This document shows, piece by piece, positions 7,967 to 63,207 of a stretch of 64,000 bases of DNA. The first letter of the stretch is position 1; each line of letters opens with the position of its first letter. Source of the DNA: a virus. Taxonomy: Duplodnaviria; Caudoviricetes. Both the position numbers and the translations under genes were made by a program. The notes under the pieces were generated by a model that had not been told where the DNA came from, searched no databases, and was given only the letters and a program-made list of their open reading frames with translations. The stretch is from positions 126,299 to 190,298 of the IMG/VR virus record IMGVR_UViG_3300037361_000044; one strand, 5' to 3'.

Positions 7967-10003
7967 ATGAGTATCCCAGGCTCGTTGCAGATGGGTGGTG
8001 CTGGTGGCGCGTCGCGTTTTGCGCAGACGCGTGGGCGTATGGGCAACGGAATGAACCAAGGGGTGAACTACCCCAGTCCGTTCTTCGACATTGCGCATAC
8101 GTACCTGCCTACGACGGTCAAGGCGATGTTCCGGTGGTGCCGGTACTACTTCATGACCAACCCCATCATCAATGCCACGGTCTTCAAGCTCTCCGAGTAC
8201 CCGATCACGGAGATTCAGATCGACCATCCAGAGCCCTCTGTGGCCAGACGTTGGAAGGAGTACTTCGAAGACCATCTGAATTACAGGGCGTTTCAGATCG
8301 AGTGCGGGCTCGACTACAACACGTATGGCAATTGCCTGTCGAGTTTGAGTTTCCCGTTCAAGAAGTACTTGACCTGTTCGTACTGCCAGCACCAGGCGGA
8401 GGCTAAGCGTATCCGTCCGCACTGGGTGTTCACCAACTACGAGTACCGACTTAGCTGTCCGAAGTGCGGGCAGGTCGGCACTGCCGCGGCCAAGGACATC
8501 TACTTCAAGAATGAGGCCGGCATCTCGATGATGCGCTGGAGCCCGGAGGACGTTGAGATCAGCTACTCTGCTCTAACAGGCGAGCACACGTACTTCTACA
8601 ACATCCCGCCGTCTGTTCGTAACGACGTCATCATCGGTAAGAAGGATGCCGTGGAGCAGGTGCCAGAGGTGTTCATCCAGGCACTACGCCAGCAGAAGGG
8701 CGTAGTGTTCTCGAAGGAGCTGTTCTTCCATCTCCGTCGTCCGACGCTGGCTGACCAGGACCGTGGCTGGGGGATCCCGCTGCTGCTGCCCTGTTTGAAG
8801 GATACGTTCTACCTGCAGATCATGAAGAAGGCGCAGGAGGCTATCCTCCTCGAGCACATCGTGCCCCTTCGTATCCTGTTCCCGCAGGCAGGCTCTGGGA
8901 CCTCGGATCCATACACATCGGTCAACCTGGTGGATTGGCGTGACCACGTGGCTACGGAAATAGCGCGTTGGCGCATGGATCCCAACTACATCCCAATCCT
9001 GCCGTTACCCGTTGGTAACCAGACGATTGGTGGGGATGGCCGCGCGCTGCTGATGGTTCAAGAGATGCAGACGTTGAGTGAGCAGCTCATCAACGGTATG
9101 CAGGTACCTCTGGAGTTCATCAAGGGTGGCTTGAGCTTCTCTGGTACGAACGTGTCTATGCGCATGCTCGAGAACCAGTTCATCATCTACCTGTCCCGCC
9201 ATCGTCGTATGGCGCGGTGGGTCATGCGCAGTGTCGCTGATTACCTTGGCTGGCCGCTGGCGGACATCCGCTTCAAGCCCTTCAAGATGGCTGATGACAT
9301 CCAACGGAAGGCCTTCCTCTTCCAACTCAACCAGGCCAATAAAGTCAGCGACACCACGCTGCTGGCTGACTCCGATCTGGACCAGACGCGAGAAGACCAA
9401 ATCATGGAGCGCGAGACCGCTGCCCGTATCAAGGCGACGGAGAAGCAGCAGCTTGCCAACGCGGAACTGCAAGGCAAGCAGCAGGCCATCATGATGAAAA
9501 TGCAGGCCAAAGCTCAGCAGGAAATGCAAGCCGCGTTGGCTGCCCCCTCCGCTCCGGGTGAGCCTGGTGGGCCAGATGCTGGCGCAGCGCCCCCCGGTGG
9601 GCAAGGTGGTGCACAAGTAGCTCCCGACAGCCCAATGGGGGCCATGCAGAGTCCACTCAATGCTGGACAAAACATGGGCATGGGCACCAGCCAATCCCCA
9701 GGGCAGTCGCCCCAGATGGGTGGCGCCAACATCATCGTGATGGCGCAGACCATCGCTCAGGAGCTCTCCACGTTGAATGCGGGGCAGCAGCTAATTGCCA
9801 TCAAGAATCTGCGTATGCAGTCCCCAGAGCTGGCGGACTTGGTGATGCAGAACTTGCGGGCAATGCCGCAGCAGTCCAACGACCCAATGGCAATGGGAAA
9901 CCCCAACGCGCAGCTGGGCATGAATGGGCAAGCAGCGCAGCAGGTGGATATGCGACCCTTGCCTGAGAAGCTTCCGCCTCGTCGCGCTGCAGGCATGGTC
10001 TGA
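7967..10003 (+). CDS. Portal protein with Zn-ribbon insertion and low-complexity C-terminal tail
   Basis: YFMTNPIINATV, DYNTYGNC, FFHLRRP, GWGIPLL, LINGMQVPLEFI portal-like blocks; CSYC...CPKC insertion. Confidence 0.8.
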   Translation: MSIPGSLQMGGAGGASRFAQTRGRMGNGMNQGVNYPSPFFDIAHTYLPTTVKAMFRWCRYYFMTNPIINATVFKLSEYPITEIQIDHPEPSVARRWKEYFEDHLNYRAFQIECGLDYNTYGNCLSSLSFPFKKYLTCSYCQHQAEAKRIRPHWVFTNYEYRLSCPKCGQVGTAAAKDIYFKNEAGISMMRWSPEDVEISYSALTGEHTYFYNIPPSVRNDVIIGKKDAVEQVPEVFIQALRQQKGVVFSKELFFHLRRPTLADQDRGWGIPLLLPCLKDTFYLQIMKKAQEAILLEHIVPLRILFPQAGSGTSDPYTSVNLVDWRDHVATEIARWRMDPNYIPILPLPVGNQTIGGDGRALLMVQEMQTLSEQLINGMQVPLEFIKGGLSFSGTNVSMRMLENQFIIYLSRHRRMARWVMRSVADYLGWPLADIRFKPFKMADDIQRKAFLFQLNQANKVSDTTLLADSDLDQTREDQIMERETAARIKATEKQQLANAELQGKQQAIMMKMQAKAQQEMQAALAAPSAPGEPGGPDAGAAPPGGQGGAQVAPDSPMGAMQSPLNAGQNMGMGTSQSPGQSPQMGGANIIVMAQTIAQELSTLNAGQQLIAIKNLRMQSPELADLVMQNLRAMPQQSNDPMAMGNPNAQLGMNGQAAQQVDMRPLPEKLPPRRAAGMV

Positions 10004-10050
10004 TAGGGGGCTAAGAGAAAAAGGGGTCTTGGCGGACCCCTTTCTCCTTT
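10003..10050. terminator. Terminator-like hairpin between convergent genes; on minus strand hairpin-TTTTTCTCT-TAGCCCCC
   Basis: AAAGGGGTC-TTGGCG-GACCCCTTT stem-loop. Confidence 0.8.
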
Positions 10051-10052
10051 CA

Positions 10053-10238
10053 CTACGCGCGGAGCTCGGGCCCCACCTTCTTGTTCTGCTCGCGCATGCC
10101 GAGCAGCTCAGCCTCGGTCTTGGCCAAGATTTGCTTGGTAGCTCGGTGCTTCCCAGCAACGTAACCAAGGGTTCCGATGACAGCTGCGCCGACGGTTGAT
10201 GCGGTGGCAATGATGGCGATGCGAATAGCGTTGGTCAT
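10053..10238 (-). CDS. Small single-pass membrane protein
   Basis: Hydrophobic N-terminus, charged helical tail; bracketed by promoter-like and terminator-like motifs. Confidence 0.7.
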   Translation of the reverse strand: MTNAIRIAIIATASTVGAAVIGTLGYVAGKHRATKQILAKTEAELLGMREQNKKVGPELRA

Positions 10239-10289
10239 GGTCTTTTGCTTTCCTGGAACAACCGATGTGGCTGTTTTCCTCTTACCTTA

Positions 10290-10316
10290 CTTATGCCCGC
10301 TTTCCCGGCGTTTTTG
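10290..10316 (-). promoter_or_regulatory. Putative phage promoter CAA-N19-ATAAG
   Basis: Minus strand CAAAAACGCCGGGAAAGCGGGCATAAG, intergenic. Confidence 0.6.
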
Positions 10317-10319
10317 CAG

Positions 10320-11699
10320 TTATGCCACATCGTCTAGGAAGATGGTCTCGCCCCAATCTGCTGGAGCGCGTCTACGTGATCCAGGAACAATTCCCCAGAT
10401 GACGTTGATGCCACGCGGCTGCTCCTCGGGCGCTGTTCCGTCGCCATCGCTCAAGTAGATCACAGCATCTGGCTTCGGTCTGGCCTGCTCTGCCATCTCG
10501 AAGGCTGGGCAGAAGTCTGTACCCCCACGCCCCTTGATCTCCATGTGCTGCAGGTCCCTTATGGACACACGTGTTGGCGGTGTTTGTACTTTCGTGTCCG
10601 CCTCCATGTACCAGACGTTCATGACGCCGGTCTGCCGCATGACATCAACGCAGACGCGTAGCGCGTCACCCAGGTTCTGCTTCCCCATGGAGGCAGAGCT
10701 GTCGACTACGATCCATATTGTCGGCTCGTACGCGATCAGCCCAGGCCTTGGAAAGCCAACCAGTGTGGAGCGCTTTGAAGGTCTGCGCATGCTGTAGTCC
10801 AGGCCTCCTCTTTGGATGTTACCTACCAAGCTGCGTGTAGCTCTGCCGAGTTTTGCCACCCAGGGCACATGAAACACGGTGTCGCTGATTTCAACTATCT
10901 CGCTCCACGAGCCGGGCATGGTCCCGCGGCCCTCTCCTTCCATGTGCGCCTTTATTGCAGCCGCGGTGTCGCGTGCAAACTTGTGGCACTGCGTCTCTGA
11001 GTGCCCTATCCGATTGTCTTCTGACTTCTCCAATTCCTTTCTTAGCGGGTTGCCGGATACGCCACCGCAGCAGCCAGCCATGATCTTTCCCTGGTTTGGC
11101 TTTTCTCCGGGCTGCGGCGAGCTGCTGGAAGAACCCAGGCCTTGCCCAGGCTTCCCGGCACCGTTGCTGCCAGCAGCCTGTTTTTGGTGCTCCTTGGCCT
11201 CGTGCTTTTCCAGCAGGTGGTAGTACGCATCCGCAGTCAGCCCATCTTCGAATCCGTATTGAGACGGCATGAGCGCCCAGTCCGGGAATTCCCAAAGCGG
11301 CGCTTGCTTGATGACCTGGTTGCCGTTGTCCTTGGTGCGTATACTCCGCATTTGCTTGACCATCGTGCCGTTGATGAACAAGTCAGCTGCCCTGTTGTAA
11401 CGCTCGGGGTCTGCGTAGCTCTTTCCTCGGTTGATGTGATGCAGCAGCGCGTGCAGGCACTCATGCCCTAGCCCAGTGGCAAGTACAAGCACGCTTATCT
11501 CGTTGAGCCAGTCGGGCTCGTAGAGAAGTACTAGCCGCTCAGTAACTGCCAGCGGGCCACCCGCTATCTCAGTAAGGCCCACGTAGGGCCTTGGAATGAG
11601 GCCGTACAGGGTGGCCCCGAAGTACGGCGCTTGTAGTTTCACATAGGCTCGAGCCAGCGCAAGCTTATTGCTTGTTTTGTCCGATCCGACTTCTGCCAC
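10320..11699 (-). CDS. HExxH metallopeptidase plus vWA domain protein (DUF2201-like)
   Basis: GHECLHALLHH, N.AADLFIN, VVDSSASM, GRGGTDF, IYLSDG. Confidence 0.88.
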   Translation of the reverse strand: MAEVGSDKTSNKLALARAYVKLQAPYFGATLYGLIPRPYVGLTEIAGGPLAVTERLVLLYEPDWLNEISVLVLATGLGHECLHALLHHINRGKSYADPERYNRAADLFINGTMVKQMRSIRTKDNGNQVIKQAPLWEFPDWALMPSQYGFEDGLTADAYYHLLEKHEAKEHQKQAAGSNGAGKPGQGLGSSSSSPQPGEKPNQGKIMAGCCGGVSGNPLRKELEKSEDNRIGHSETQCHKFARDTAAAIKAHMEGEGRGTMPGSWSEIVEISDTVFHVPWVAKLGRATRSLVGNIQRGGLDYSMRRPSKRSTLVGFPRPGLIAYEPTIWIVVDSSASMGKQNLGDALRVCVDVMRQTGVMNVWYMEADTKVQTPPTRVSIRDLQHMEIKGRGGTDFCPAFEMAEQARPKPDAVIYLSDGDGTAPEEQPRGINVIWGIVPGSRRRAPADWGETIFLDDVA

Positions 11700-11700
11700 G

Positions 11701-12957
11701 TTAGGCCAGCTCTTTCAGGAAGTTCTGTACGCCGCTCTTGGATAGACGCACCAGTACAGGTCTCGCTGCAGCAACCACATCGCTGTTGCCGGAGTGCACA
11801 CCCAACTGGGCCTGGATAAGACCCTCCACGCAAGGCACAACAACGTCGGATAGCTGTGCGTCGAATAGCTGACCCAGGCTCTTCCACAGCAGCGGTGCCA
11901 CCTCTAGCTGCGCATCACGTGACGGTTTTTGCCGTACGTATGCTGTGGCGCTGTTGTACGCAGCTAGCACGATGTCCAGCCGGTGGGGGTTTACCTTCCA
12001 CTTGCCTGTGAGCACATCCATGGGTTTCGGTATGTCCGTTTCTGCTGCGTAGGTCATGAACATTGAGCCGGCCCCTTCGCCAACGCAGGAATACACCAAC
12101 GCTTCGCGGATACTGTCACCCTTATGTAGGATGCTCGCAGTAGTCCACGCCCGCATGGCGTAGTCCCACGTGCGTGGCGATGGCCAGCTTTTGCTGCTTT
12201 GCGGGTCGGACGGTGCCGGCATCTTGTGTAGTAGCGACGGATTGGCTTCCATGAATGCGGTGAACAAGCCTAGGGTCTCGGGAAAGATGGAAGGCCAATC
12301 CGAGATGACTACCTCTTCGATCTCAGCCAGGGTTGCTTGTAATCCCTCCAAGGTGTTGCCCATCTGGAAGGCGCTCCACTCACGCGCTGTTGGACCGGGG
12401 TCGGTCACGTGCATGAAGCGGTTGGCTAGTGGCGGGGAGAACCTGAAGCCCCCGGTGGCTATGTCCTCGGGGTTCGACGCCGCGAGCATTCGAATGCCCC
12501 CAGGAATGGGCTGGTCCCCAGCCACCCGTTCATGGATGAAGCTTTGGATGGCACCCTGTGTGGCAGGCGTGGCGCCGTTCACCTCGTCGAGAAAGATGAT
12601 GCCGCGCCCGACCTTGATGAGCTCGCGTACCTGAGAGAGCGGGCAGATCTGTCTGGCCCCTCCCTTACCATCCGGGATGAGCGCCCCGGAGAAGTCCTCG
12701 GGTGGATGCTGCGCTGCGAACAAAGACCTGGCACTGATGTGCAGTACCTTGCTCATCTGTTTGATGCGGGCGGTTTTGGCGTTGCCAGGTAGGCCTTCGA
12801 TAATGAGGGGCAACCCCCAGAGACAATCGTCGTGGCCAGGGTACCCGTCCATGGGGGAGGCCAAGGCCACCTCAACCAGCTCGTTTAGCTCTTTTCTCCC
12901 CAGCGGCATTGCGAGGGGATTGGTCAGCGCGGTTGTACTTGCTTTCTTAGTTGCCAT
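11701..12957 (-). CDS. MoxR-type AAA+ ATPase
   Basis: GLPGNAKT, IIFLDEVN, AASNP, PLANRF, PSPRTW; likely start ATG 12957. Confidence 0.88.
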   Translation of the reverse strand: MATKKASTTALTNPLAMPLGRKELNELVEVALASPMDGYPGHDDCLWGLPLIIEGLPGNAKTARIKQMSKVLHISARSLFAAQHPPEDFSGALIPDGKGGARQICPLSQVRELIKVGRGIIFLDEVNGATPATQGAIQSFIHERVAGDQPIPGGIRMLAASNPEDIATGGFRFSPPLANRFMHVTDPGPTAREWSAFQMGNTLEGLQATLAEIEEVVISDWPSIFPETLGLFTAFMEANPSLLHKMPAPSDPQSSKSWPSPRTWDYAMRAWTTASILHKGDSIREALVYSCVGEGAGSMFMTYAAETDIPKPMDVLTGKWKVNPHRLDIVLAAYNSATAYVRQKPSRDAQLEVAPLLWKSLGQLFDAQLSDVVVPCVEGLIQAQLGVHSGNSDVVAAARPVLVRLSKSGVQNFLKELA

Positions 12958-14433: not shown

Positions 14434-14460
14434 CTTATCTCGGCTAGTACGCAGCTATTG
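14434..14460 (-). promoter_or_regulatory. Putative phage promoter CAA-N19-ATAAG
   Basis: Minus strand CAATAGCTGCGTACTAGCCGAGATAAG heading the 14409-10053 operon, divergent from RNAP. Confidence 0.6.
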
Positions 14461-14513: not shown

Positions 14514-17500
14514 ATGGCGTACCTGGATCCCAACGAGGCATTTGACCACTTCAGAGACCGAACTCTGGAGGCGATAGGGAAGCAATTCCCGGTCGACGGC
14601 ATCAATCAGGTGCTGAGCTTGGAGCGGCTTGAAGTACCTGACGAGCTAAGTCCGGATGATATTCGCAGTCAGCACCACGCCAAGGTGAACGGCCAGACGT
14701 GGGGTGTTCCAATCATCGCGCACCTGGCATTGACGAACAAGCAGACCGGGGAAGTGACGCGCTCCCGTACACGGATTGCTGAGCTGCCAAAGGTCACTGG
14801 TAGGCACAGCCACATCGTCAATGGGCAGGAGTACCAGGTAGACAACCAGTGGCAGCTCAAGCCCGGAGCCTACGTGCGGCGTCGGCAGACGGGGCAGATC
14901 GAGACCATGTTTCAGTCAAGCAAACGCCCGTCTTTCGACGTCACGTTTGACGACGCCTCCAAGGAGTTCAAGGCTGAGCTCCCCGGTGGTAAGGCTATTG
15001 TGCCGTTGTACCCGCTGCTGTCCGCGCTCGGCGTACATGACGACGAGTTGGAGAGGGCCTGGGGTAAGGACATCCTGCAGACCAACAAGAGCTCGCGCAA
15101 CGTGGCCGGCGCCGTGGCGCAGTACTACAAGACTACGAAGCGTGAGGAGCCCAAGAGCCACGAGGATGCAGTCAGGCACCTGGTCGACTCTCTGAAGCAG
15201 ACCGACCTACGTCCGGAGTCTACGGACATCACGCTGGGTAAGCCCATAGACCATGTGAACGGTGACGCATTGCTTAGGGCGACCAAGCGCATGCTGGCTG
15301 TACAACGGGGTGAGGCGCAGGACGACCGCGACTCGCTGGTATTCAAGGACCTGCGAAGCGTGGGTGATTTCTCTCACGACAAGATCATGGCGGCCAGCGG
15401 TGACATCCGCAGGAAGATGCAGCGCAAGATCAATAAGGCGACGAGCCCGCGGGATGTGGTCCCGTTCGAGGCGTTCAACAAGCCTATCCGTGAGACGTTC
15501 TTCAAGAACTCCGCGGCGCAGGTGGCTAAGCAAATCAACCCGGTGGAGATGGTCTCTACCGCGCAGCAGACCACAGTGATGGGCCCCGGCGGCATCCAGT
15601 CAGAGCAGCAGATTCTGGATGAGGTGAAGTTCGTAAACGCTTCCCACATGGGATTCCTGGACCCCATTCACACGCCAGAGGGCAGCAAGACTGGTGTGAC
15701 GCTGCGTATGCCAATCAGCGTCACCCAGCACGGTCACGAGCCTAGGATACCCCTGTACAACATGCGTACGGGCAAGACCGAGCAGGTTGGTCCCGCTACG
15801 TTCCTCCGGTCGAAAGTGGTCCTACCAGATCAGGTGACGTGGGACGGCGACAAGCCAGTGGCTAAGTATCCTGCGGTGAAGTGGTCTACCACAGGCAATG
15901 AAGTTGCCGATGGCCATCTCAAGGATGCGGACTACGTGATGAAGCACTCCTCGCAGTTCTTCAACATCACTAGCAATCTCATCCCGTTCGTCAACAATAC
16001 GTCTGGTGGCCGTGCGTCTATGGCCACACGACACATGGAGCAGTCCATTTCCTTGCTGCACCGTGAAGCCCCCATGGTGCAGGTGGGCACCGGCAGTAGT
16101 ACGGCAGGTAGCCGTACGTTCGAGGAGATCATTGGTTCACAGGCGTCGCATCGGTCTCCGGTGTCGGGCACGGTGAAGGCTGTGAAGCACGATGCCGTGG
16201 TGGTGACTGACCACTTGGGCAAGGACCACGAGGTTCAGGTCTACCGCAATTACCCGCTGAATGACGCGAAGTCGGTACTCGACTCCACCATTCTGGTGAA
16301 GCCCGGCGACAAGGTGAAAGCCTCGCAGGTGGTGGCCGACACAAACTTCTCGCGTAATGGCACCATCGCGCTGGGTACAAACCTGCGCGTCGGCTACATC
16401 CCCTACAAGGGGTACAACTTCGAGGATGGTGTAGTCATCAGCGAGAGCGCCGCCAAGAAGCTGAGTAGTGTGCACTTGTACAAGCACAAGGTCGGTGTTG
16501 ATGACGATACGGTCCTAGCCAAGCGGCACTACATGACACAGCACCCTGGTCTGTACAGTAGGGATCAGTTCTCCAAGATAGGCGACAACGGTTTGGCCGT
16601 GGTCGGTTCGAAGGTGCAGCCTGGAGACCCCCTTGTACTGTCCATGAAGAAGGCCGTCGTGAAGGACAGGACTGGTCTGTCCGCTATTCGCAAGAGCTTG
16701 GGAGAGACCTACTCGGATAGATCTTTGACCTGGGAGGGTGAAGGACCTGGCGAGGTTGTAAGCTCGTTCAAGAAGGATGGGGAAGTCGTTGTCCACGTGC
16801 GCGCGGTAGAGCCCATGCAAGTGGGTGACAAGATGGCGGGGCGCTATGGTAACAAAGGCATCGTCACCAAGATCGTGCCCGACCACGAGATGCCACATAC
16901 CCCAGACGGGCGGCATATCGAGGTGGCGCTAAACCCCTCCGGCGTTCCCGGCCGCATGAACATTGGGCAGGTGCTTGAGACTGCCGCAAGCAAGATTGCG
17001 GAGAAGACAGGTAAGCCCTACGTTGTGCAGAACTTCGATGGCACGAACCAGCTGGAGACCATTCAGGCGGAGTTGAAGAAGCACGGCATTAGCGACGTAG
17101 AAGACCTGTACGACCCGATGAACAAGCAGAAGTTGGGATCGGCGCTGGTAGGCAACCAGCACATGATCAAGCTGCACCATCAAGTCGACAAGAAGGTGTC
17201 GGTACGCTCTGGGCTCAACTTGCCAGGCGGCGGCGTAGAGAAGTACAACTCCAACCTGCAGCCCACAGGCGGTGGTCATTCTGGTGGGCAGTCCATGGAC
17301 CCGCTAGGGTTGTACTCGCTACTGGCGCACGGCGCTCGAGCGAACATCCGAGAGATGCAGACATGGAAAAGCGAAGGACCGGACATGTCTGCCTCCGCCG
17401 CAAAGCAGTGGCAGAGTCAGCATCACGATGTGTGGGATGCCATTCAGCACGGTGACCCGTTGCCAACTCCCAAGCCTACATTCGCCTTCAAGAAGTTCAC

Positions 17501-20500
17501 GGACATGCTGACGGGTGCTGGCATCAACATCGAGAAGCACGGGCACGAGTTTGTGCTTACGCCACTCACCAATCAGCAGATCCATGCGTTGACGGGTGAC
17601 CGTGTGCTGCCGAAGCCCGCTGAGCTGCTCTATGCCAAGCCCGATCCCAAGACGGGTGAGCCCCGCCCAAAGCCAGGTGGGTTATTCGACGAGCGGTTGA
17701 CCGGTGGGCACGGCGGCAAGAAGTGGAGTCGAATGACTTTGGCAGAGCCGGTACCGAATCCGGTGTTTGCCGAGTCCATTCGAATGCTGGCTGGGTTATC
17801 GAACGAGCACTACACCGGGCTGGTACATGGCACGCATGTACTGGGCGCGGACGGCAAGGTTGTACCTATGGGCCCCGGTATTACTGGGCAGGCCGGTGGT
17901 GCTGCCGTCGAAACCCTGCTGCACAAGGTGGACATCGACAAGGATTTGGCCGCCGCGCGCAAAGCCTTGGATACGCTTCCTGCATCCAAGGTCGACAAGA
18001 CTTTGAAGAAGGTGAAGCGGCTACAGGCGTTGAAGGACGCAGGACTTGGTGCAGCGGAGGCGTACATACTGCACTCGCTGCCTATTGTCCCTCCGGCGAT
18101 GCGCCCCATCACCGTAATGCATGACGGTAGCTTCAAGTTTGATGATATCAACCAGCTGTATTCTCAGTTAGCGCAGAACAACAGCCAGCTGCAGGACCCC
18201 ACGCTGCGTGACAACCTGCTACCCGAGCGCCGTAGGGACCTACGCAGGGACTTGTACGACGGGGTTGGCGCCGTCATGGGCGTAGGCGTTCCGTATGCGG
18301 ATGCTGCGCACAAGGGCTTGATTCACCAGATCCAAGGGGCGGCTCCGAAGACTGGTTACTTCCAGAGCACGCTCATCAGCCGCAAGCAGGACTTGAGCAT
18401 GCGCTCCACGATTGTCCCGGAACCAGCCCTGTCCCTGGACGAGATCGGGCTGCCCAAGGAACACGCTATGAAGCTGTTCTCCCCCTTCGTGGTAGGCGAG
18501 CTGCGCAAGTCTGGCATGGCACTGAACGTGGCTGACGCGCAGAGCATGGTGGCGAAGAACGCGCCAGCGGCTCAGCGGGCATTGCAGCGGGTGATGACGG
18601 ATCGTCCTGTGCTCTTGAAGCGTGATCCGGCCCTGCACAAGTACAGCGTACAGGCGTTCAAGCCGCGAGTGGTGGACGGTAACGCCATCAAGATTCATCC
18701 GCTAGTGACCGGCGGGTACAACGCGGACTTTGACGGCGACACCATGAGCGTGTTCGTACCTATCGGGCAGGACGCGGTGGCGGAGGCGCACAAGATGCTG
18801 CCCTCGAACAACTTGTTCAGCGAGGCTACAGGGAAGGTCATGTACCAACCCACCCTCGAGTCGGCGCTAGGGTTGTACAAGCTGTCGCGGGTCACTGACG
18901 CCAAGGTTCACCATGTGCAGCACCCAGCTGATGCCATCAAACTCGTGCAGACGGGCAAGCTGTCCGTCAACGACAGGGTGCAGTATGGGGGCCAGGTGAC
19001 CACCACTGGTCGCATTCTGATGGCAGCAGCGCTACCTGAGCCCATGCAGCAGTCCATTCTAGGAGACCTGCATAAAAGCCTGGATAAGAAGGGCCTCGAC
19101 ACGCTGCTGACGCAGGTGGCTCGGGAGCATTCCGGGGACTACGGCTCTGTAGCAGACAAGCTGAAGGACATTGGCAACGGTGCCGCTAGTGGCGTCGTGA
19201 CGGTGGAGCACAACAACTACACTGGAGACCACCGGTTGGACCCCCAGAAGCGGACGTATGTGCCAGTCGGGGTTCACACGTTGGCTCTGTCCGACTTCAC
19301 CCCGGACATCGCTACGCGCGAGCATGTGTTGGCTCCTGTCCGCGTGGAGGTTGCCAAGATCAAGGGCAGCAGCATGACGCAGTACGCCAAGGACGCGGCA
19401 ACCGTGCGTGCCTGGTCAGCGGCAGACCAGCAGATGCAGAAGGACCACATGGCGAAGGCCACAGACAAGCCCTCGAACCTCATGACAATGCACTTGGCTG
19501 GCGTGAAGCCAGGCTGGGGGCAGTACAAGCAACTAACCCTCGCTCCGATGCTGGTGGCAGACGCATCAGGCCGCACTATCCCCGTGCCAATCACCAAGAG
19601 CTACGCAGAGGGGCTGGACACGGGGGACTACTGGAACCAGATGCACGGGGCCCGTCGAGGGGCTGTGATGAAGGTCCAGGAAGTCCGTGAACCTGGTTAC
19701 CTGTCGAAGCTGCTCATGGCCAACACCATGGACATGGTCGTCAATGGGGAGGATTGTGGTACCACGCGTGGCATTGCGCTGCCGGTCACAGACTCGGATG
19801 TGCATGACCGCATCCTGCAGAAGGACTTCAGCGTAAAGGGCGTGCACATCCCTGCCGGCACGATGCTGACGCCAAACCTGGTGTCTCGCATGCGTGCGGT
19901 GAGTCCCCGCGAGCAGATTGTGGTGCGGAGTCCGTTGAAGTGCGAGCACGCGAAGGGGGTTTGCCAGAAGTGCATGGGACTGTCATCGGACGGGAACATG
20001 CATCAGATCGGCGAGAACATCGGTGTGTCAGCCGCGCAGTCGCTGGGGGAGCGCGCAGTGCAGCTGACTATGCGTGTGTTCCACACAGGCGGCACGGTGG
20101 ATACCGGGGGTGGCTCCAAGGTGCTTGGGGAGTTTGACCGGTTGAATCAGCTCATGATGCTGCCAAAGCACATTGCCGATTCGTCCACACTTGCCATGCA
20201 CACGGGCACCATCGAGAAGATAGAGCCCACGGCGACCGGCGTCACCGTCTACATCTCCGGCAAGAAGCACCACGTGGGCAAGGACGCCAAGGGCGCCCCG
20301 CTGTGGAAACCTCTCGTGGACGCGGCCCCTGGCTGGGCTCCGCCAAAGGTGGGGATGCAGGTTACCAAGGGGCAGGTGTTGAGCGATCCATTGCGTACTC
20401 TGGTGAACCCACACGACCTGTACAAGGCCACTGGCAACATGGAGACCGTCCAGAACTACTTGGCGGACCAGGTGCATGCTCTGTACAAGGGTGAGGGCAT

Positions 20501-20915
20501 CAAGCGCAAGCACGTGGAGACCGTGGTGAAGGCCATGAGCAACCTCACCAAGATCGAGGCGGCTGGGGATTACCCAGGTGTCCTCCGCGGGGAGTTTCAT
20601 CCGACTTCTAAGATTGCCGCGCTGAACAGGGAGCTCATCCGGGCTGGAAAGACGCCCATCGAGCACAAGCCTGTACTGAAGGGGGTGGACATCATGCCGC
20701 TTTCGGTGCAGGAAGACTGGATGGCCAAGATGCAGCACATCCGGTTGAGCAAGACCCTGCTCGACGCGGCGGCCACGGGTGGTACATCGAACATCCACAG
20801 CTTGCACCCTATCCCCGGCATGGCCTACGGCGCTGAATTCGGTCTGAATCAGGAGCACGCCAAGAAGCGTCTGGCTTTGTCGCACCTACATGACGTGAAG
20901 GGACACGAGTACTGA
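14514..20915 (+). CDS. rpoBC: Phage DNA-directed RNA polymerase, single-chain beta-beta' fusion
   Basis: beta: MGPGG, HTPEG, GYNFEDG, GDKMAGRYGNKG, LNPSGVPGRMNIGQ; beta': LKRDPALH, YNADFDGD, HGARRG, QLTMRVFHTGG; one uninterrupted ORF. Confidence 0.96.
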   Translation: MAYLDPNEAFDHFRDRTLEAIGKQFPVDGINQVLSLERLEVPDELSPDDIRSQHHAKVNGQTWGVPIIAHLALTNKQTGEVTRSRTRIAELPKVTGRHSHIVNGQEYQVDNQWQLKPGAYVRRRQTGQIETMFQSSKRPSFDVTFDDASKEFKAELPGGKAIVPLYPLLSALGVHDDELERAWGKDILQTNKSSRNVAGAVAQYYKTTKREEPKSHEDAVRHLVDSLKQTDLRPESTDITLGKPIDHVNGDALLRATKRMLAVQRGEAQDDRDSLVFKDLRSVGDFSHDKIMAASGDIRRKMQRKINKATSPRDVVPFEAFNKPIRETFFKNSAAQVAKQINPVEMVSTAQQTTVMGPGGIQSEQQILDEVKFVNASHMGFLDPIHTPEGSKTGVTLRMPISVTQHGHEPRIPLYNMRTGKTEQVGPATFLRSKVVLPDQVTWDGDKPVAKYPAVKWSTTGNEVADGHLKDADYVMKHSSQFFNITSNLIPFVNNTSGGRASMATRHMEQSISLLHREAPMVQVGTGSSTAGSRTFEEIIGSQASHRSPVSGTVKAVKHDAVVVTDHLGKDHEVQVYRNYPLNDAKSVLDSTILVKPGDKVKASQVVADTNFSRNGTIALGTNLRVGYIPYKGYNFEDGVVISESAAKKLSSVHLYKHKVGVDDDTVLAKRHYMTQHPGLYSRDQFSKIGDNGLAVVGSKVQPGDPLVLSMKKAVVKDRTGLSAIRKSLGETYSDRSLTWEGEGPGEVVSSFKKDGEVVVHVRAVEPMQVGDKMAGRYGNKGIVTKIVPDHEMPHTPDGRHIEVALNPSGVPGRMNIGQVLETAASKIAEKTGKPYVVQNFDGTNQLETIQAELKKHGISDVEDLYDPMNKQKLGSALVGNQHMIKLHHQVDKKVSVRSGLNLPGGGVEKYNSNLQPTGGGHSGGQSMDPLGLYSLLAHGARANIREMQTWKSEGPDMSASAAKQWQSQHHDVWDAIQHGDPLPTPKPTFAFKKFTDMLTGAGINIEKHGHEFVLTPLTNQQIHALTGDRVLPKPAELLYAKPDPKTGEPRPKPGGLFDERLTGGHGGKKWSRMTLAEPVPNPVFAESIRMLAGLSNEHYTGLVHGTHVLGADGKVVPMGPGITGQAGGAAVETLLHKVDIDKDLAAARKALDTLPASKVDKTLKKVKRLQALKDAGLGAAEAYILHSLPIVPPAMRPITVMHDGSFKFDDINQLYSQLAQNNSQLQDPTLRDNLLPERRRDLRRDLYDGVGAVMGVGVPYADAAHKGLIHQIQGAAPKTGYFQSTLISRKQDLSMRSTIVPEPALSLDEIGLPKEHAMKLFSPFVVGELRKSGMALNVADAQSMVAKNAPAAQRALQRVMTDRPVLLKRDPALHKYSVQAFKPRVVDGNAIKIHPLVTGGYNADFDGDTMSVFVPIGQDAVAEAHKMLPSNNLFSEATGKVMYQPTLESALGLYKLSRVTDAKVHHVQHPADAIKLVQTGKLSVNDRVQYGGQVTTTGRILMAAALPEPMQQSILGDLHKSLDKKGLDTLLTQVAREHSGDYGSVADKLKDIGNGAASGVVTVEHNNYTGDHRLDPQKRTYVPVGVHTLALSDFTPDIATREHVLAPVRVEVAKIKGSSMTQYAKDAATVRAWSAADQQMQKDHMAKATDKPSNLMTMHLAGVKPGWGQYKQLTLAPMLVADASGRTIPVPITKSYAEGLDTGDYWNQMHGARRGAVMKVQEVREPGYLSKLLMANTMDMVVNGEDCGTTRGIALPVTDSDVHDRILQKDFSVKGVHIPAGTMLTPNLVSRMRAVSPREQIVVRSPLKCEHAKGVCQKCMGLSSDGNMHQIGENIGVSAAQSLGERAVQLTMRVFHTGGTVDTGGGSKVLGEFDRLNQLMMLPKHIADSSTLAMHTGTIEKIEPTATGVTVYISGKKHHVGKDAKGAPLWKPLVDAAPGWAPPKVGMQVTKGQVLSDPLRTLVNPHDLYKATGNMETVQNYLADQVHALYKGEGIKRKHVETVVKAMSNLTKIEAAGDYPGVLRGEFHPTSKIAALNRELIRAGKTPIEHKPVLKGVDIMPLSVQEDWMAKMQHIRLSKTLLDAAATGGTSNIHSLHPIPGMAYGAEFGLNQEHAKKRLALSHLHDVKGHEY

Positions 20916-29840: not shown

Positions 29841-29880
29841 TAGGGGGCTACGAGAAAGGGGAGTTTTACTCCCCCTTCTT
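29840..29880. terminator. Terminator-like hairpin; minus strand hairpin-TTTCTCG-TAGCCCCC
   Basis: GGGGAGT-TTT-ACTCCCC; flank near-identical to 10003-10020. Confidence 0.75.
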
Positions 29881-30146
29881 CACTCAGCCGCGCGCCGCGT
29901 CTTCAGCGCTTTCTCTACTTCGTCGTAGCCCAGCACCACTGGCCAGGCGACAGCTGAGAAGCCAATGAGTCCAATAAACGCAGCGTTGGCCACGATTGCC
30001 AGCTGCCGTTCGGATAGCGGGTTGTCCTCTGTCACCGCGGCAATGAGCACGTCGGCAGTCCAGCGTGATCGTTTTACTTCTTGGTAGGCGTTGTAACCAA
30101 CTACTGCACCCATCGCTACGTAGGCTGTTGTCAATAGAAAGCTCAT
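29880..30146 (-). CDS. Small two-TM membrane protein
   Basis: Two hydrophobic segments; GGAGG RBS. Confidence 0.72.
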   Translation of the reverse strand: MSFLLTTAYVAMGAVVGYNAYQEVKRSRWTADVLIAAVTEDNPLSERQLAIVANAAFIGLIGFSAVAWPVVLGYDEVEKALKTRRAAE

Positions 30147-30907
30147 GGCGTTCCTCCACTACTCTCCTTATCCCCGAAATCGTCGTGGATTTGAGACAAC
30201 GCCAAGGAAATTCTTCGAGGGTAGAGTTGGGAGATGACCTCGTCGGTCACGGCCTTATCCACGAATAGGGCATCGGCCATGCGCTGACCACGTCTCTCCA
30301 GCACGTAGAAATAGGCCACGTGCCGCAGGCTTTTACGAGCAGCCTCGAGGCACGAGTAAGCAAAGGGTAGACTCATGTCACGCAACTTGCTTGGGCGGTC
30401 CGCCAAGCGATTGGCGAGTTGCATGTAGATCTCCCAAGGACTCGAGTAGTCCGTGATGTCCTCCAGCAGCCGCAGGTAGGACTCGTCTATTGCGTTGATA
30501 ATGGTGGCCCACTCCAGAATCTGGTCGGCGGGCACCCGGCTTAGATCCGACAACAGCAGCTCGTACGCCTGCGCGTGGATCTGGAACATGCTTTCCTGCT
30601 CATAGGCCAGGCGCCTGTTGTCCAGCCCCAGCAGCTGGCAGAGCATGGAGAGCCGGTCGGCGACTGAGCTACTGAGGGCCGCGGCCTGCCTGGCTAGGTG
30701 CGCCACGGATGGCATGTCCATGGTCCGTCCGCGCAGTTCGAGTATTGCCCGGATGTCGGCGGGGTCGTAGAGGGAGTCGATGACGTGCTTCCCGCGGAAA
30801 GCTGGGCGCAGCTTGCCTTGGCGAACCAGTGCGGTGAGCCAGCGGGGGGTTACACCCAGCTGCTTGGCTGCAGCCTTGTGCGTGAGTAGCTTAGGATTCC
30901 TTCCCAT
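30143..30907 (-). CDS. HTH (excisionase/MerR-like) DNA-binding protein
   Basis: LLTHKAAAKQLGVTPRWLTALVRQGKL...YDPADI; likely start ATG 30907. Confidence 0.75.
   Translation of the reverse strand: MGRNPKLLTHKAAAKQLGVTPRWLTALVRQGKLRPAFRGKHVIDSLYDPADIRAILELRGRTMDMPSVAHLARQAAALSSSVADRLSMLCQLLGLDNRRLAYEQESMFQIHAQAYELLLSDLSRVPADQILEWATIINAIDESYLRLLEDITDYSSPWEIYMQLANRLADRPSKLRDMSLPFAYSCLEAARKSLRHVAYFYVLERRGQRMADALFVDKAVTDEVISQLYPRRISLALSQIHDDFGDKESSGGTP
30167..30193 (-). promoter_or_regulatory. Putative phage promoter CAA-N19-ATAAG
   Basis: Minus strand CAAATCCACGACGATTTCGGGGATAAG, 20 nt upstream of the 30146 start. Confidence 0.6.
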
Positions 30908-50450: not shown

Positions 50451-50459
50451 TTATCTGTG

Positions 50460-50512
50460 GAATAGGTAGACACTAAATGGTATAAGGGTTCTGAGAGGAA
50501 CCCTTACCCATG
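50460..50512 (+). promoter_or_regulatory. GAA-N19-ATAAG promoter-like motif overlapping an RBS-sequestering hairpin of the HNH gene
   Basis: TAAGGGTTC-TGAGAG-GAACCCTTA perfect 9-bp stem covering GAGAGGA; ATAAG at 50482-50486. Confidence 0.65.
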
Positions 50513-51319
50513 ACTGAGCGACAACCGGGACGACCGCCAAGAGACCAATGGCCCAACTGCAAGGTACAAAGCTGCGAGAACAGCACCAAGGGAGGTTCCT
50601 TTGGGCTCTGTCGGCAGCACTACATGCAGTGCAGAAACGGGATTATCGACCGCGACGGGAATCAACTGCGAGAGCTGCAACGTGTTCCGAGTTACGGACC
50701 AGGCGCCACCTGCTCCATTGTTGGGTGCTTCAATCGACCAAAGGCAGGCGGCCTTTGCCACGGGCACTGGCAGCGTCAACAGAAGGGCCAAGACGTATCC
50801 ACCGTTCTGGCATTACCTCGCGGGCAAGCTCCGAGCATGGTGGTGTGTTGTGCTCCTGGCTGCGACGCACGCGCCAGCAGCCATGGGATGTGCCATCGGC
50901 ACGCGCAGAAGCGAAGCAGAGGATTGATCGACGAGGCAGGGAATCCTTTGCGGGATCCACTACCTGGCGGGAAGAAGCACGTGGACGGACCTGTGCGGGC
51001 TCCGGGTGGCTACCTGTTGGTGGTAGCGCCCAGCGGGTACCAAGGGCGTACCAAGGACGGGCGTGTGCTCGAGCACAGGTTGGTAGTGGAGCAGCAGATC
51101 GACAGGCTTCTTTACGAGTGGGAGATTGTGCACCACAAGAACGGCGTGCGCACAGACAACCGCCCAGAGAATCTTCAGGTATTAGACGGGCGCGCCCGAA
51201 AGGGAGAGGGGCATTCTCCTGGGCACATGCCGTCCATGGAAGACTTGCAGGCGCACCTGGATCAGCTGAAGTTCAACGACCCCGCAGGATATGTCCGATT
51301 ATTGGACCAACTGCGGTAG
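50510..51319 (+). CDS. HNH homing endonuclease with three C-x4-C...C-x2-H repeats
   Basis: VLEHRLVVE..I.R.L...EIVHHKNGVRTDNRPENL. Confidence 0.88.
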   Translation: MTERQPGRPPRDQWPNCKVQSCENSTKGGSFGLCRQHYMQCRNGIIDRDGNQLRELQRVPSYGPGATCSIVGCFNRPKAGGLCHGHWQRQQKGQDVSTVLALPRGQAPSMVVCCAPGCDARASSHGMCHRHAQKRSRGLIDEAGNPLRDPLPGGKKHVDGPVRAPGGYLLVVAPSGYQGRTKDGRVLEHRLVVEQQIDRLLYEWEIVHHKNGVRTDNRPENLQVLDGRARKGEGHSPGHMPSMEDLQAHLDQLKFNDPAGYVRLLDQLR

Positions 51320-51324
51320 TATCT

Positions 51325-51359
51325 GAAAGACGCGGTGTCCCCGCTTCTTTCTTAGCCCC
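51325..51359 (+). terminator. Terminator-like hairpin-TTCTTTCT-TAGCCCC
   Basis: GCGG-TGTCC-CCGC followed by a pyrimidine tract and TAGC. Confidence 0.55.
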
Positions 51360-51371
51360 GGAGTTTTGCTG

Positions 51372-52199
51372 ATGGACCTCGACAAGTTCAACGTAGCGGT
51401 GCACCGCGTCCAGGCCGGGCAGTTCCTTCGAGAGAAGACTGCCTCGGTCGTGGGCGTGAGTGCCATCGACGCCGCGCTACAGGCGCGCGCTGGGCAGGCG
51501 GAAGACCCCGACCTGCTCAAGATCGCCACGCAGCTCTGCCCCGAGGATGCCCTTGGGTTTTACATGAAGCTGGGTGGTCAGCTAAAGGTTGCGGAGCCTC
51601 CGCCCCCTCCAGGTGTTTCGTTGAAGGAGTGGGACAAGAAGCTCCAAGAGGGGCCTGAGAAGACAGCAGGGGATGTGGTGAAGTTCACCCGACCCCTAGC
51701 TTCGAAGGTCAAGGACTTGGCGAAGAAGGTCCTTCCAGCGGCTAACGGCACTGTGCGCAAGGTGGACTTCACCAACCCAGAGGGTGTGCGTGGGGCGCTG
51801 AGTAAGGCACGTGACGCGACGGCAAGGGCCGCACATAACGCCAAGGCCATGAAGAATGGCAAGCCGTCGTCTTTGTCCGACACCTTGAGCTATGCCAAAG
51901 GTGCTTTGCCCTTTGCCGGTGCCGCTGCGCTAGCTGGTGGCGTCTCAGGGCACATCCGAGGTAAGGTCACCTCTGCGTCTGACCGGCGCAAGGAGGAGGC
52001 TAAAGCTGGACCTATCGGCCGCGCCATCATCCGACATCCAGCCCTGGCTGGAGCCGCCTCCGCTGGAGCCGGCACGATGCTCGGTCTGCACGCCAAGACT
52101 TTTCCTGGTGCGTTGGCGGGCGCTGTAGCACCTGGTCTAACTGCTCTTGGTGCCGACCGAGTGTTGAAGCATTTTGAGGATAAGAAGAAGGGGCGCTAA
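51372..52199 (+). CDS. Putative internal head protein with K-x-A sites and hydrophobic glycine-rich C-terminus
   Basis: EKTAS, KIAT, KVAE, EKTAG; ATG 51372 after GGAG. Confidence 0.6.
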   Translation: MDLDKFNVAVHRVQAGQFLREKTASVVGVSAIDAALQARAGQAEDPDLLKIATQLCPEDALGFYMKLGGQLKVAEPPPPPGVSLKEWDKKLQEGPEKTAGDVVKFTRPLASKVKDLAKKVLPAANGTVRKVDFTNPEGVRGALSKARDATARAAHNAKAMKNGKPSSLSDTLSYAKGALPFAGAAALAGGVSGHIRGKVTSASDRRKEEAKAGPIGRAIIRHPALAGAASAGAGTMLGLHAKTFPGALAGAVAPGLTALGADRVLKHFEDKKKGR

Positions 52200-55731: not shown

Positions 55732-56238
55732 CTACTGCAGCCACCAGTAGGCAGGGAGCTCCGTTACGGGTACATCAATACCCGGGCGGGGCTTCTCTCT
55801 TTTTGGCGCAGCCTTACGGGGAGCCTGTGGCCGTGGCTTGCCCTTGTTGGAGCCGTGGGTGACTGGTGGTTCCTTCTTTAGTGGTGGTGCCTGGAAGTAA
55901 TCGAAGGTGGCAAGGTTCAACAGCCTGCGTTCACTCGTCGTCAAGCGCTCGACGGATTTGCTCCCTTGCATCAACTGCTCGAGAAGTCCTTTCACCTCGT
56001 CCCCGTACTTCTCTGGATTCCTTTGGTAGTCGGAGACCAAGAGGGTCGGGTCCCCTAGGGTGCCATCGAAGAGGTCCGTCAGCCTCCTCATCTTCGGGGT
56101 AGCCTGCTCCTGGGCTTCCAACTCCACCAGCTCCGAGAACGTCGGAAACTGTGGAGGGGGTGGCGCCACCGGCGGCTGTAGGGAGGTAAGATTTGTAGTG
56201 GTCGACGGCTCTTCCGACAACGGCTGCTTTGTAGTCAT
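55732..56238 (-). CDS. Hypothetical protein (start could be 56091)
   Basis: ORF track; abuts the convergent gene with no gap. Confidence 0.6.
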   Translation of the reverse strand: MTTKQPLSEEPSTTTNLTSLQPPVAPPPPQFPTFSELVELEAQEQATPKMRRLTDLFDGTLGDPTLLVSDYQRNPEKYGDEVKGLLEQLMQGSKSVERLTTSERRLLNLATFDYFQAPPLKKEPPVTHGSNKGKPRPQAPRKAAPKREKPRPGIDVPVTELPAYWWLQ

Positions 56239-56428
56239 CGATGATCCTCGGCTGCATAGCTAAAAGAAAATGGGAGCAGATGGCACCCATCAGCTCGAGC
56301 TGCCCTTTGGGAGGCAGCCCGCGCTGTTTGAGCTCGGCGTTTACTATGAACATGTACATGCGGAGCAAGTCCCAAACCTCCTCGAAGAGGCGGGGTCCGT
56401 ACTTGCCGTACTTGCGTATGAGCCGCAT
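55931..56428 (-). CDS. Hypothetical protein overlapping the downstream gene
   Basis: Protein-like N-terminal ~85 aa. Confidence 0.5.
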   Translation of the reverse strand: MRLIRKYGKYGPRLFEEVWDLLRMYMFIVNAELKQRGLPPKGQLELMGAICSHFLLAMQPRIIDDYKAAVVGRAVDHYKSYLPTAAGGATPSTVSDVLGAGGVGSPGAGYPEDEEADGPLRWHPRGPDPLGLRLPKESREVRGRGERTSRAVDAREQIRRALDDE

Positions 56429-60181: not shown

Positions 60182-60217
60182 GTCCGATGGGCTCTTTGTC
60201 CTCACAGACAGAACGAC

Positions 60218-60266
60218 CAAGGACCCGGTGTCTCCTCTCTTACATGTGGGGAGCTCCGGGTTCTTG
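60218..60266 (+). terminator. Strong hairpin downstream of the H1-like gene
   Basis: CAAGGACCCGG...CCGGGTTCTTG with inner CTCC/GGAG pairing. Confidence 0.55.
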
Positions 60267-60280
60267 TGTCATTTACCCGC

Positions 60281-61341: not shown

Positions 61342-61353
61342 TAGGGTAACTAC

Positions 61354-61749: not shown

Positions 61750-61982
61750 ATGAAGTTGCCGAACGCATCAAGGAGCAGTCTGCCCAGTACCAAGTGGGCA
61801 GGCTCCGCGTTCAGCTAGATGAAACGGTCACGTTACGCAAAGCTGAGACTTCTCAGTACGTAAAAGACTTACAAGTGCTAGTCAACTACATCCAAGCGGT
61901 GGCCAGCGACATACCTGAAGAGGTGAACGAGGTCATTGCCAGGGCTGAAGAGCTCCTCACGATAAAGCGACTGAGATTATGA
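61746..61982 (+). CDS. Hypothetical protein
   Basis: ATGA overlap. Confidence 0.65.
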   Translation: MNEVAERIKEQSAQYQVGRLRVQLDETVTLRKAETSQYVKDLQVLVNYIQAVASDIPEEVNEVIARAEELLTIKRLRL

Positions 61983-62230
61983 GCGATGCAGTAGACGTAG
62001 CTGTAGAGACTTTCGAAGGAGAGCTCTACCAGTTCCCCAACACATCCGAAGCCAGCTTGCGCCAGGCGCTGGCCAAGGCGCTTGGGGATCAGACGGTGTT
62101 GTCCTTGGTGAACCTGTCGGGAGCAGCCATGGTGGTGCTGTGGCCAACAGTCTGTCGCATCACCTTTGCCAACATTGACGCGGACGTAGTAGATGATGTC
62201 TGGCAGACACTGTGGGAGGTCACCCCGTGA
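61979..62230 (+). CDS. Hypothetical protein
   Basis: ATGA overlap. Confidence 0.65.
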   Translation: MSDAVDVAVETFEGELYQFPNTSEASLRQALAKALGDQTVLSLVNLSGAAMVVLWPTVCRITFANIDADVVDDVWQTLWEVTP

Positions 62231-62652
62231 GCAACAACGCCATGAACTGCATGAATTGCAAGGCCAGTGTAGAACCCGCCGACGCGAAGCTCTTCGCTGA
62301 GGTGTACCTGTGCCCCAGCTGTTACGCGCAGGCAGTGCACTTCTGGACGCGGCTGGATACAGAGCTGCGTAATCTGCTGGTCATGGCGCGTGATGCCATT
62401 CGAGTTAGCCTGCTGGAGGGTAAGTTCTTCTTTCCTGAGGCGTCTGGTGACAATGCGGTATCCAAGCGGGCTGTGCTGGAGAGTATCCTGAGCATGGAAG
62501 AAGCCAGAGCAGCCAAGGAGTCCGCATGTACCAAGACGACGAGTACACAGTCAGCCCAAACACCAGCCTCTTCGGGGATTACACCGCCATCTGCACGCAC
62601 CCTGGCTGTCCCGGGAAGCTCAAGTTCACTCAAGGGCTCTCCGCGAAGTTGA
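62227..62652 (+). CDS. Zn-finger hypothetical protein
   Basis: GTG 62227 after GGGAGG; CMNC...CPSC. Confidence 0.65.
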   Translation: MSNNAMNCMNCKASVEPADAKLFAEVYLCPSCYAQAVHFWTRLDTELRNLLVMARDAIRVSLLEGKFFFPEASGDNAVSKRAVLESILSMEEARAAKESACTKTTSTQSAQTPASSGITPPSARTLAVPGSSSSLKGSPRS

Positions 62653-62801
62653 GCCCGGGTGACGCGGTGCCCTATGACCGCAGCCACCCGGAGTTCGGGA
62701 AGTGTCCAGTATGCAAGCGCAACAAGATGCAAGTACGTACAGCCCCGGCACTACCGGAGCCGTTGCAGCCCAAAGGGTTTGCCTCGATACCGACGATATG
62801 A
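62526..62801 (+). CDS. Zn-ribbon hypothetical protein
   Basis: AAGGAG RBS; CTHPGC...CPVC. Confidence 0.65.
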   Translation: MYQDDEYTVSPNTSLFGDYTAICTHPGCPGKLKFTQGLSAKLSPGDAVPYDRSHPEFGKCPVCKRNKMQVRTAPALPEPLQPKGFASIPTI

Positions 62802-63184
62802 TGTGGCTGCGCCGGGACTGGAACGTCCCGGTGGGCACCTTCTCGTCATTCACCACACGGCAGCAGCAAGCCAATGTGGACGGCCACCTGCTGCGGTGGT
62901 GGTCCTTCAAGGTGGATCGGCTGCACATCAGTCACCGTTCTGCGATGCACTTGCTGCAGGGGCGCACGTTGAGTGACCTCCTGCTGCCAAGTCATTACAT
63001 ACAGAAGGACGGTGGAGAATACTTCGGGGAGGTGGGGCAGCTGGTTCTTCGGGTAGACCCGTGGAACTACTGGCTTCCACGCCCGGTTGTGACCGGGCTG
63101 ACGGTGGTTACGGTGGAGTTGCCGCCGCAGGAGCTTGCACTGGAAAAGGTGCTCGAGGCTCTTGTGGCGGCATCGGCCTCTTGA
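62798..63184 (+). CDS. Hypothetical protein
   Basis: ATG 62798 overlapping the upstream stop. Confidence 0.6.
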   Translation: MMWLRRDWNVPVGTFSSFTTRQQQANVDGHLLRWWSFKVDRLHISHRSAMHLLQGRTLSDLLLPSHYIQKDGGEYFGEVGQLVLRVDPWNYWLPRPVVTGLTVVTVELPPQELALEKVLEALVAASAS

Positions 63185-63207
63185 CCACTGCCTTTTTTCT
63201 AGCTATG
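63169..63207 (+). terminator. Weak hairpin-TTTTTTC-TAGC terminator-like element
   Basis: GCCTTTTTTCTAGCTATG directly after the last gene of the run. Confidence 0.45.

Follow-up and report, generated by a model that had tools for sequence, protein, structure and literature searches.

A fixed TAGCC tail on terminator-like elements in a lineage of large uncultured phages

How does a large phage that carries its own multisubunit RNA polymerase (RNAP) end a transcription unit, and can a stop signal include fixed sequence beyond the hairpin and the U-rich tract? These questions are raised by a 64,000-nucleotide stretch of DNA (the window), bases 126,299-190,298 and so the final 64 kb of the 190,298-bp phage record IMGVR_UViG_3300037361_000044. 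An original prediction had named five terminator-like sites here that close ATAAG units and share a short word, TAGC, after a pyrimidine tract. All five sequences are present; sites 1-3 are good successions of hairpin, tract and TAGCC, but site 4 has no abutting hairpin and site 5 is coding sequence. We consider it probable that sites 1-3, and about 19 clean sites in the genome as a whole, terminate transcription without added factors and follow a design particular to this lineage. The three are listed here, with positions given in the window unless marked as genome positions.

10006-10047, minus strand: terminator 1 (site 1), intergenic; −20.6 kcal/mol, z −3.67
29843-29879, minus strand: terminator 2 (site 2), intergenic; −19.0 kcal/mol, z −4.27
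51325-51359, plus strand: terminator 3 (site 3), intergenic; −13.1 kcal/mol, z −4.39

At each of these sites a stable GC-rich hairpin abuts a U-rich tract, as in intrinsic terminators, which is not so at sites 4 and 5. Terminator 1 has an extended hairpin (10016-10047) with the core GGGGUC/GACCCC (10023-10040), followed by the tract UUUUUCUCU (10014-10022), a TAGCC box (10009-10013) and a run of C down to 10006. Terminator 2 has a different hairpin (29853-29879, core GGGGGAG/CUCCCC), the tract UUUCUCG (29851-29857) and then TAGCCCCC (29843-29850). In terminator 3 the hairpin (51325-51351) contains just four G:C pairs (GCGG/CCGC) lengthened by A:U pairs, and leads into the tract UUCUUUCU and TAGCCCC (51353-51359). 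As had been claimed, the 18-mer ATAGGGGGCTA[A/C]GAGAAA is identical at 17 of 18 positions between 10003 and 29840; a third copy of TAGCCCCCTAT lies beyond the window, at genome position 112869.

The same anatomy recurs across the class, which we described from 74 clean intergenic sites in five genomes, this one (G000) and four relatives fetched whole (G001, G002, G003 and G005), with gene orientation taken from our own crude gene calls. A U/C tract of about 7 nucleotides (nt) precedes a fixed box, T-A-G-C-(C/T), often with further C. The tracts are imperfect, with one to three C inside or, at site 2, one G, and the GC-rich base of the hairpin is lengthened by pairing between an upstream purine tract and the downstream pyrimidine tract. 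A logo of 115 instances is T/C-rich exactly at −7 to −1 (0.4-0.9 bits) and carries G/C-rich stem sequence farther upstream. The GC core ends 7-9 nt ahead of TAGC in 14 of 17 clean sites read in this genome, placing the A of the box about 8-10 nt beyond the core. For bacterial-type RNAPs, 8-10 nt is the length of one RNA:DNA hybrid and roughly the point of release. The box thus starts about one hybrid length past the stem core and goes with the terminator. When the purine/pyrimidine extension is included, the predicted helix stops 1-3 nt before UAGC in 43 of the 74 sites; an automated distance from the 'last G:C pair' to TAGC was uninformative, being confounded by G:C pairs within that extension.

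Counting the motif is complicated by base composition. Permissive hairpin scans were flooded by spurious hairpins at the genome's 59% GC, and a standard terminator scan missed site 1 and returned counts not above those of shuffles, so we used word statistics anchored on the tract instead. The genome-wide count that had been proposed as a check gave 30 copies of a 9-nt pyrimidine tract followed by TAGC, against 4.8±2.3 (maximum 10) in 30 third-order Markov genomes; the corresponding figures for G002 are 26 and 6.2±2.3. An unbiased tally, in which the word was not chosen in advance but read as the 4-mer beginning at the first purine after a T-ending pyrimidine tract, returned AGCC as the top outlier in all five genomes (z 8.4-23). 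AGCC was found 29 times in this genome against 3.2 expected (z 15.7), 23 against 4.2 in G002, 15 against 3.2 in G001, 17 against 0.8 in G005 (z 23) and 13 against 1.8 in G003, where AGCT is also in excess (12 against 2.2). Intergenic k-mers agree, TTAGCCCC being intergenic in 9 of its 14 copies. The motif class is real, conserved and terminator-like. Two other words were considered and set aside: TAGCTA as a palindromic motif of its own (18 copies in this genome, 4 of them intergenic) is nothing special, and TAGGTA(C), as a late-promoter word that would account for the TAG, occurs in inconsistent contexts.

Conservation across phages bears on the prediction that sequence is kept beyond the U-tract, and bears it out. 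At the junction orthologous to site 1, 16 of 42 non-redundant relatives keep the succession of hairpin, tract and TAGC[CT], and no two of these 16 share a hairpin sequence. Retention of the tail was seen in 4 of 6 relatives at a marker identity of at least 70%, in 10 of 23 at 53-69% and in 2 of 13 below that. Site 2 behaves alike in G001, where TTTTTCT-TAGCTA stands behind another stem. Stems can thus change freely, whereas the tail is constrained.

What do these elements close? The word ATAAG by itself is not enriched (28 copies against 42.6 expected). Enrichment is confined to an extended promoter motif, modelled from 11 sites as CAA(A), about 17 nt, G-ATAAG and then a ribosome-binding site, and it is through this CAA-N17-(G)ATAAG form that the predicted link to ATAAG units survives at sites 1-3. 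Matches to the model fall at 1139, 10296, 14440 and 30173, all on the minus strand, and more weakly at 50480 (plus strand) and 58725 (minus strand); 10296 pairs with site 1, 30173 with site 2 and 50480 with site 3. The corresponding features, with open reading frames (ORFs) and position weight matrix (PWM) scores, are as follows.

10053-10238, minus strand: ORF of 61 amino acids (aa) closed by terminator 1, from our own gene call; stop codon TAG at 10053-10055
10290-10318, minus strand: promoter-like GCAAAA-N-GCATAAG ahead of the 61-aa ORF; PWM score 26.1 (site 10296)
about 14434-14460, minus strand: promoter-like site heading the minus-strand operon 14169-10320; PWM score 19.0 (site 14440)
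29880-30195, minus strand: one-gene unit made up of a promoter-like site (30167-30195) and an 88-aa ORF (29880-30146); PWM score 28.5 (site 30173)
50451-51372, plus strand: free-standing HNH endonuclease cassette (HNH_3 match) made up of a promoter-like site, the HNH ORF, terminator 3 and the GGAG ribosome-binding site of the next gene

Two of these units are nested among genes to which they do not belong, as the original prediction proposed; the early timing that it gave such units is an assumption. Site 2 closes a one-gene antisense unit that lies between plus-strand packaging and structural genes; its promoter-like site reads CAAA-N17-GGGGATAAG, and the 88-aa ORF has no match in Pfam. The HNH ORF (50510-51319) follows a weak promoter-like GTATAAG (50480-50486, PWM score 16.7), and the whole cassette is missing from the sister phages G001 and G002, in which the flanking plus-strand genes overlap directly (ATCTGATGG). 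The ORFs on either side of site 3 drew no functional assignment from PHROGs, and there is hence no support there for the 'tail operon' of the original prediction. The stem of terminator 3 is the weakest of the three and the next gene's start codon lies 20 nt past the T of TAGCC, which is too close for a promoter to fit between, and the genes beyond it therefore depend on read-through. Judged by this layout, terminator 3 may be leaky or conditional, and a conditional terminator would fit.

Elsewhere in the genome most clean sites likewise close units from CAA-N17-ATAAG promoter-like sites, as judged by inspection, and nearly every minus-strand island amid the plus-strand blocks ends in a tailed terminator. 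Across the five genomes the gene upstream is co-oriented for 55 of the 60 clean sites that have a called gene within 200 nt upstream, and opposite for 5. The 3′ end of a convergent gene faces 37 of the 74 clean sites. At these there is nothing downstream to promote, which argues for the tail as a component of the stop signal rather than of a promoter farther on.

Some of the elements have a second property. Their lower stem joins a purine tract to the pyrimidine tract, which lets sites 1 and 2 form hairpins from either strand and suits them to genes that converge; each shows the mirrored purine tract of a bidirectional terminator, with a hairpin and a T-rich run on either strand. On the plus strand, terminator 1 forms a hairpin of −15.2 kcal/mol (z −2.27) followed by UUUCUCCUUUCAC without TAGC, and at both sites the TAGCC box is one-sided only. 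We also observed that at several convergent junctions (window 10003 and 29840; genome 112872, 64028, 86197, 35663 and 62003) the stop codon of the plus-strand gene falls inside the tail or at a distance of 0-10 nt from it (GGC TAA G, GGC TAG), and that several genes end in tandem stops (TGA-TAG, TAA-TAG) immediately ahead of GGGGGCTA.

The two remaining predicted sites are of a different kind.

63193-63229, plus strand: site 4, an atypical member; TTTTTTC at 63193-63199, TAGCTA at 63200-63205
56255-56290, minus strand: site 5, a coding look-alike and no terminator; TTT CTT TTA GCT ATG encodes F-L-L-A-M within HFLLAM

No hairpin adjoins the tract at site 4 (z −0.47); upstream there is only a stem of 5-6 bp with a loop of 15-17 nt that holds the stop codon. 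We compared five loci, one obtained by a search with the downstream protein and four more by a DNA pattern search. Three close relatives keep TTTTTTC-TAGCTA unchanged, L126, also a close relative, reads ATTTT-TAGCTA, and in a more distant one the same junction carries TTTTTCT-TAGCCCC. We treat the membership of site 4 as atypical or uncertain. The ribosome-binding site AGGAG of the next gene (ATG at 63245) is immediately preceded by a leader hairpin of 7 bp with a 3-nt loop (GGCGTAC/GTACGCC, 63213-63229, plus strand), kept in four close relatives with changes in the loop only, which is a candidate 5′-leader stabilizer or regulator. Site 5 lies within an ORF (55931-56428, minus strand) that can be aligned over its full length with G001 and G002, and its hairpin ends 11 nt short of TAGC (z −1.98). 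The sequence common to sites 4 and 5, TAGCTATG, has 6 copies in the genome against about 3.5 expected from an estimate based on base composition, which is chance level. As a separate observation, this ORF (A) overlaps a second minus-strand ORF (B, 55732-56238) by about 307 nt in a different frame; both frames are open and align from end to end in G001 and G002, G003 and G005 have a homologue of B only, and the arrangement may reflect a pair of overlapping genes or a frameshift.

How would such elements act? From their position and orientation, the tailed elements would stop units begun at CAA-N17-ATAAG promoters, namely the minus-strand islands and the mobile HNH cassette amid long plus-strand blocks. 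Our inference is that the stop signal includes the AGCC box. Acting at the active site or at the downstream fork, the box could bring about pausing or release, and it might offset U-tracts that are broken by C.

A candidate reader of these signals is encoded in the window itself. The plus-strand gene at 14514-20915 specifies a fused beta-beta′ multisubunit-type RNAP of 2133 aa (domain matches Rpb2_6 8e-58, Rpb1_2 4e-29 and Rpb1_5 2e-20), and genome 27189-27269, in a sigma-like ORF at about 26.9-27.7 kb, has a weak match to sigma-70 region 2. The presence of this enzyme and a sigma-like factor, together with the C-interrupted tracts and the precedent of phiKZ and 201phi2-1 described below, favours a phage reader; we rate it about an even call that the elements are read by the phage's own RNAP, with or without the sigma-like factor, we think the host RNAP a rather doubtful reader, and we leave what remains to other readers. 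A polymerase-specific signal is plausible. That AGCC is a sequence-specific termination determinant of the fused RNAP or its sigma-like factor, such that one reader may recognize both start and stop signals, is a more tentative proposal, which we put forward as doubtful but worth stating; if true, AGCC would form a hybrid stop signal, part structure and part sequence, of a multisubunit polymerase. One feature touches on it. The reverse complement of tail and tract (consensus GGGGGCTAAGAAAAA) nearly matches the −10 region of the promoter (CGGGGATAAGAAAA), the sole mismatch being C for a key A (the −11-like base); this is seen in G000, G002 and G005, for example at window 10009-10022 and 29846-29857. 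The resemblance may be chance between two purine-rich signals or a hint of a shared reader.

Several observations weigh against a dedicated, tail-dependent terminator. Termination is inferred here from sequence and not from RNA 3′ ends. In the predicted folds most of the tract is taken up in pairing with the purine tract, and the hybrid-length argument accordingly hinges on how the end of the stem is defined. Immediately ahead of the −35 element in ATAAG promoters, at −40 to −22, TAGC is also the commonest 4-mer (17 of 64). Strong terminators without a tail occur in the same genome, at genome 125343 (minus strand) and at window 55791 (plus strand), the latter within the feature:

55759-55806, plus strand: hairpin and CUUCUCUCUUUUUGG without a TAGC tail; −17.2 kcal/mol; after the last gene (end 55731) of a long plus-strand block

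In addition, five more distant relatives (G006-G010) have the same fused RNAP (38-45% identity) and show no enrichment of TAGCC. In one of them, G008 (L127-L136), strong terminators tend to carry TTTTGCCT-like tails instead of TAGCC, for example at G008 positions 17342 (minus), 18561 (minus), 80747 (plus) and 174475 (plus). The tail is therefore no general requirement of this polymerase type. It marks a subclade, on the side of G000-G005, and may follow either the host or divergence of the phage enzyme. In two of the G008 cases a −35-like word, TTGAC, directly follows the TTTTGCCT tail. Still farther away, Salmonella phage Arash and Vibrio phage D69 show no excess of TAGC behind pyrimidine tracts over a reversed-pattern control.

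These points have to be set against what each alternative would predict. The elements might be ordinary intrinsic terminators of the host RNAP, with AGCC a copied habit of the host lineage or a neutral hitch-hiker of a compact intergenic design. Hairpin and tract are indeed enough for a bacterial RNAP, the tail differs among phage subclades that share a fused RNAP, as host tracking would predict, and tail-less terminators stand alongside the tailed ones. Retention of the tail through 16 independent stem replacements nevertheless speaks for selection and against neutrality, and we know of no survey of bacterial terminators reporting a fixed word after the U-tract, which also counts against the host enzyme; we regard this explanation as unlikely. 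Alternatively, TAGCC could be an upstream promoter or insulator element (a restart signal, an UP-like element or a minimal phage-RNAP promoter like the TATG of the phiKZ non-virion RNAP) that merely sits beside terminators. The frequency of TAGC ahead of ATAAG promoters is what such an element would produce, as are the many tandems of the form hairpin-TTCTTCT-TAGCC-N2-9-GCAA-N17-ATAAG, above all in G005. Restart would also spare the genes downstream of site 3 their need for read-through, and site 4, hairpinless, yet keeps its T-tract and TAGCTA about 40 nt ahead of a gene. The sites that face a convergent 3′ end, however, have no promoter or gene to serve, and it is in just such a context that the tail of site 1 is conserved. 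Nor is there the fixed −35 spacing or the regular downstream promoter of an UP-like element: TAGCC lies at a loose 2-9 nt from the −35, whereas its spacing from the hairpin is tight. We therefore hold a promoter role to be quite improbable.

A role at the level of RNA, in which UAGCC is single-stranded at the base of a long helix and available to a nuclease or RNA-binding protein for processing or 3′-end protection, would suit the predicted helix, whose end 1-3 nt before UAGC in most sites leaves the word as a single-stranded 3′ flank. Yet no complementary partner and no Rfam match were found for it, and with termination inside the tract the word would never be transcribed; this we judge very unlikely. 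That the sites are chance or coding look-alikes without shared function is true of some individuals, namely site 5 and probably several in-gene matches (window 265, 3530, 11043 and 29399). For the class it is rejected, because the excess is at least 6-fold over Markov controls and is conserved across phages, and we give it next to no credence beyond single sites. Factor-independent termination by a hairpin, tract and tail thus continues to be the explanation that we favour.

How do these elements compare with stop signals already described? They share with canonical Rho-independent terminators the GC-rich hairpin, the U-rich tract of 7-9 nt, the position at the end of a co-oriented gene and the mirrored purine tract, and differ from them in the C-interrupted tract and in the fixed AGCC box on one side only. 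Canonical terminators have weak downstream preferences at most, although Telesnitsky and Chamberlin reportedly described, in 1989, downstream effects on efficiency at the early terminators of T3 and T7. A short fixed DNA word that helps to stop a phage polymerase also occurs in the class II termination signal of T7 RNAP, but there the word is ATCTGTT, the enzyme has a single subunit and termination does not depend on a hairpin. T4-like phages carry free-standing homing endonuclease cassettes with their own expression signals. The likeness to these is limited to site 3, a self-contained HNH cassette between genes that are contiguous in sister phages, and it explains the nesting and not the TAGCC word.

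The closest parallel comes from other phages with a multisubunit RNAP of their own. In phiKZ, a conserved intrinsic terminator motif, a stem-loop followed by TTAT, was described at 61 sites (Putzeys et al. 2024, PMC10914365), and a matching motif A occurs in 59 of 132 terminators of phage 201phi2-1 (PMC11512511). The earlier statement that ordinary terminators conserve nothing beyond the U-tract is consequently too strong where phages are concerned. As in the phage studied here, many terminators of both have a fixed short word after a short T-run, and by analogy the shared design implies a common mode of action that would go beyond hairpin and U-tract. The differences are equally clear. In phiKZ the stem itself is conserved, with pyrimidine and purine arms, and the word is TTAT(G); here stems vary, with 16 at one orthologous site and different ones at sites 1-3, and the word is TAGC(C/T). 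The phiKZ sites were mapped experimentally, whereas ours are known from sequence alone, and the lineage is an unrelated one, with a fused beta-beta′ RNAP and a sigma-like factor. Next to nothing is known of the signals that stop multisubunit RNAPs encoded by phages: no such signals appear in a 2020 review of the jumbo-phage enzymes, and the phiKZ/201phi2-1 motif is the only mapped example that we found. The elements described here would add a second, unrelated lineage in which a short fixed word stands at a fixed distance from a freely varying hairpin. With such a tail one could ask cleanly what, apart from hairpin and U-tract, causes a bacterial-type RNAP to release; it would also suggest how mobile cassettes can be insulated inside long operons and help in placing the limits of transcription units across a large group of uncultured soil and wetland phages of 170-195 kb.

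Finally, we note the setting of the genome. IMG/VR holds many uncultured phage contigs of 170-195 kb related to this phage. Among deposited phage genomes it has no close relative, and megablast with the DNA around site 1 (window 9000-12000) gave no match there; distant protein matches point to Salmonella phage Arash and to Vibrio phages. The Arash virion carries RNAP beta, beta′ and a sigma factor, and promoters and terminators are not described for it (PMC10585845). The window contains no Rfam family or transfer RNA gene. It is also devoid of the palindrome TTAA (0 copies against 75±8 expected), which has 3 copies in the whole 190-kb genome and none in five related genomes of 183-192 kb, with 46-433 copies of AATT; this avoidance is strong, and restriction avoidance is possibly its cause.

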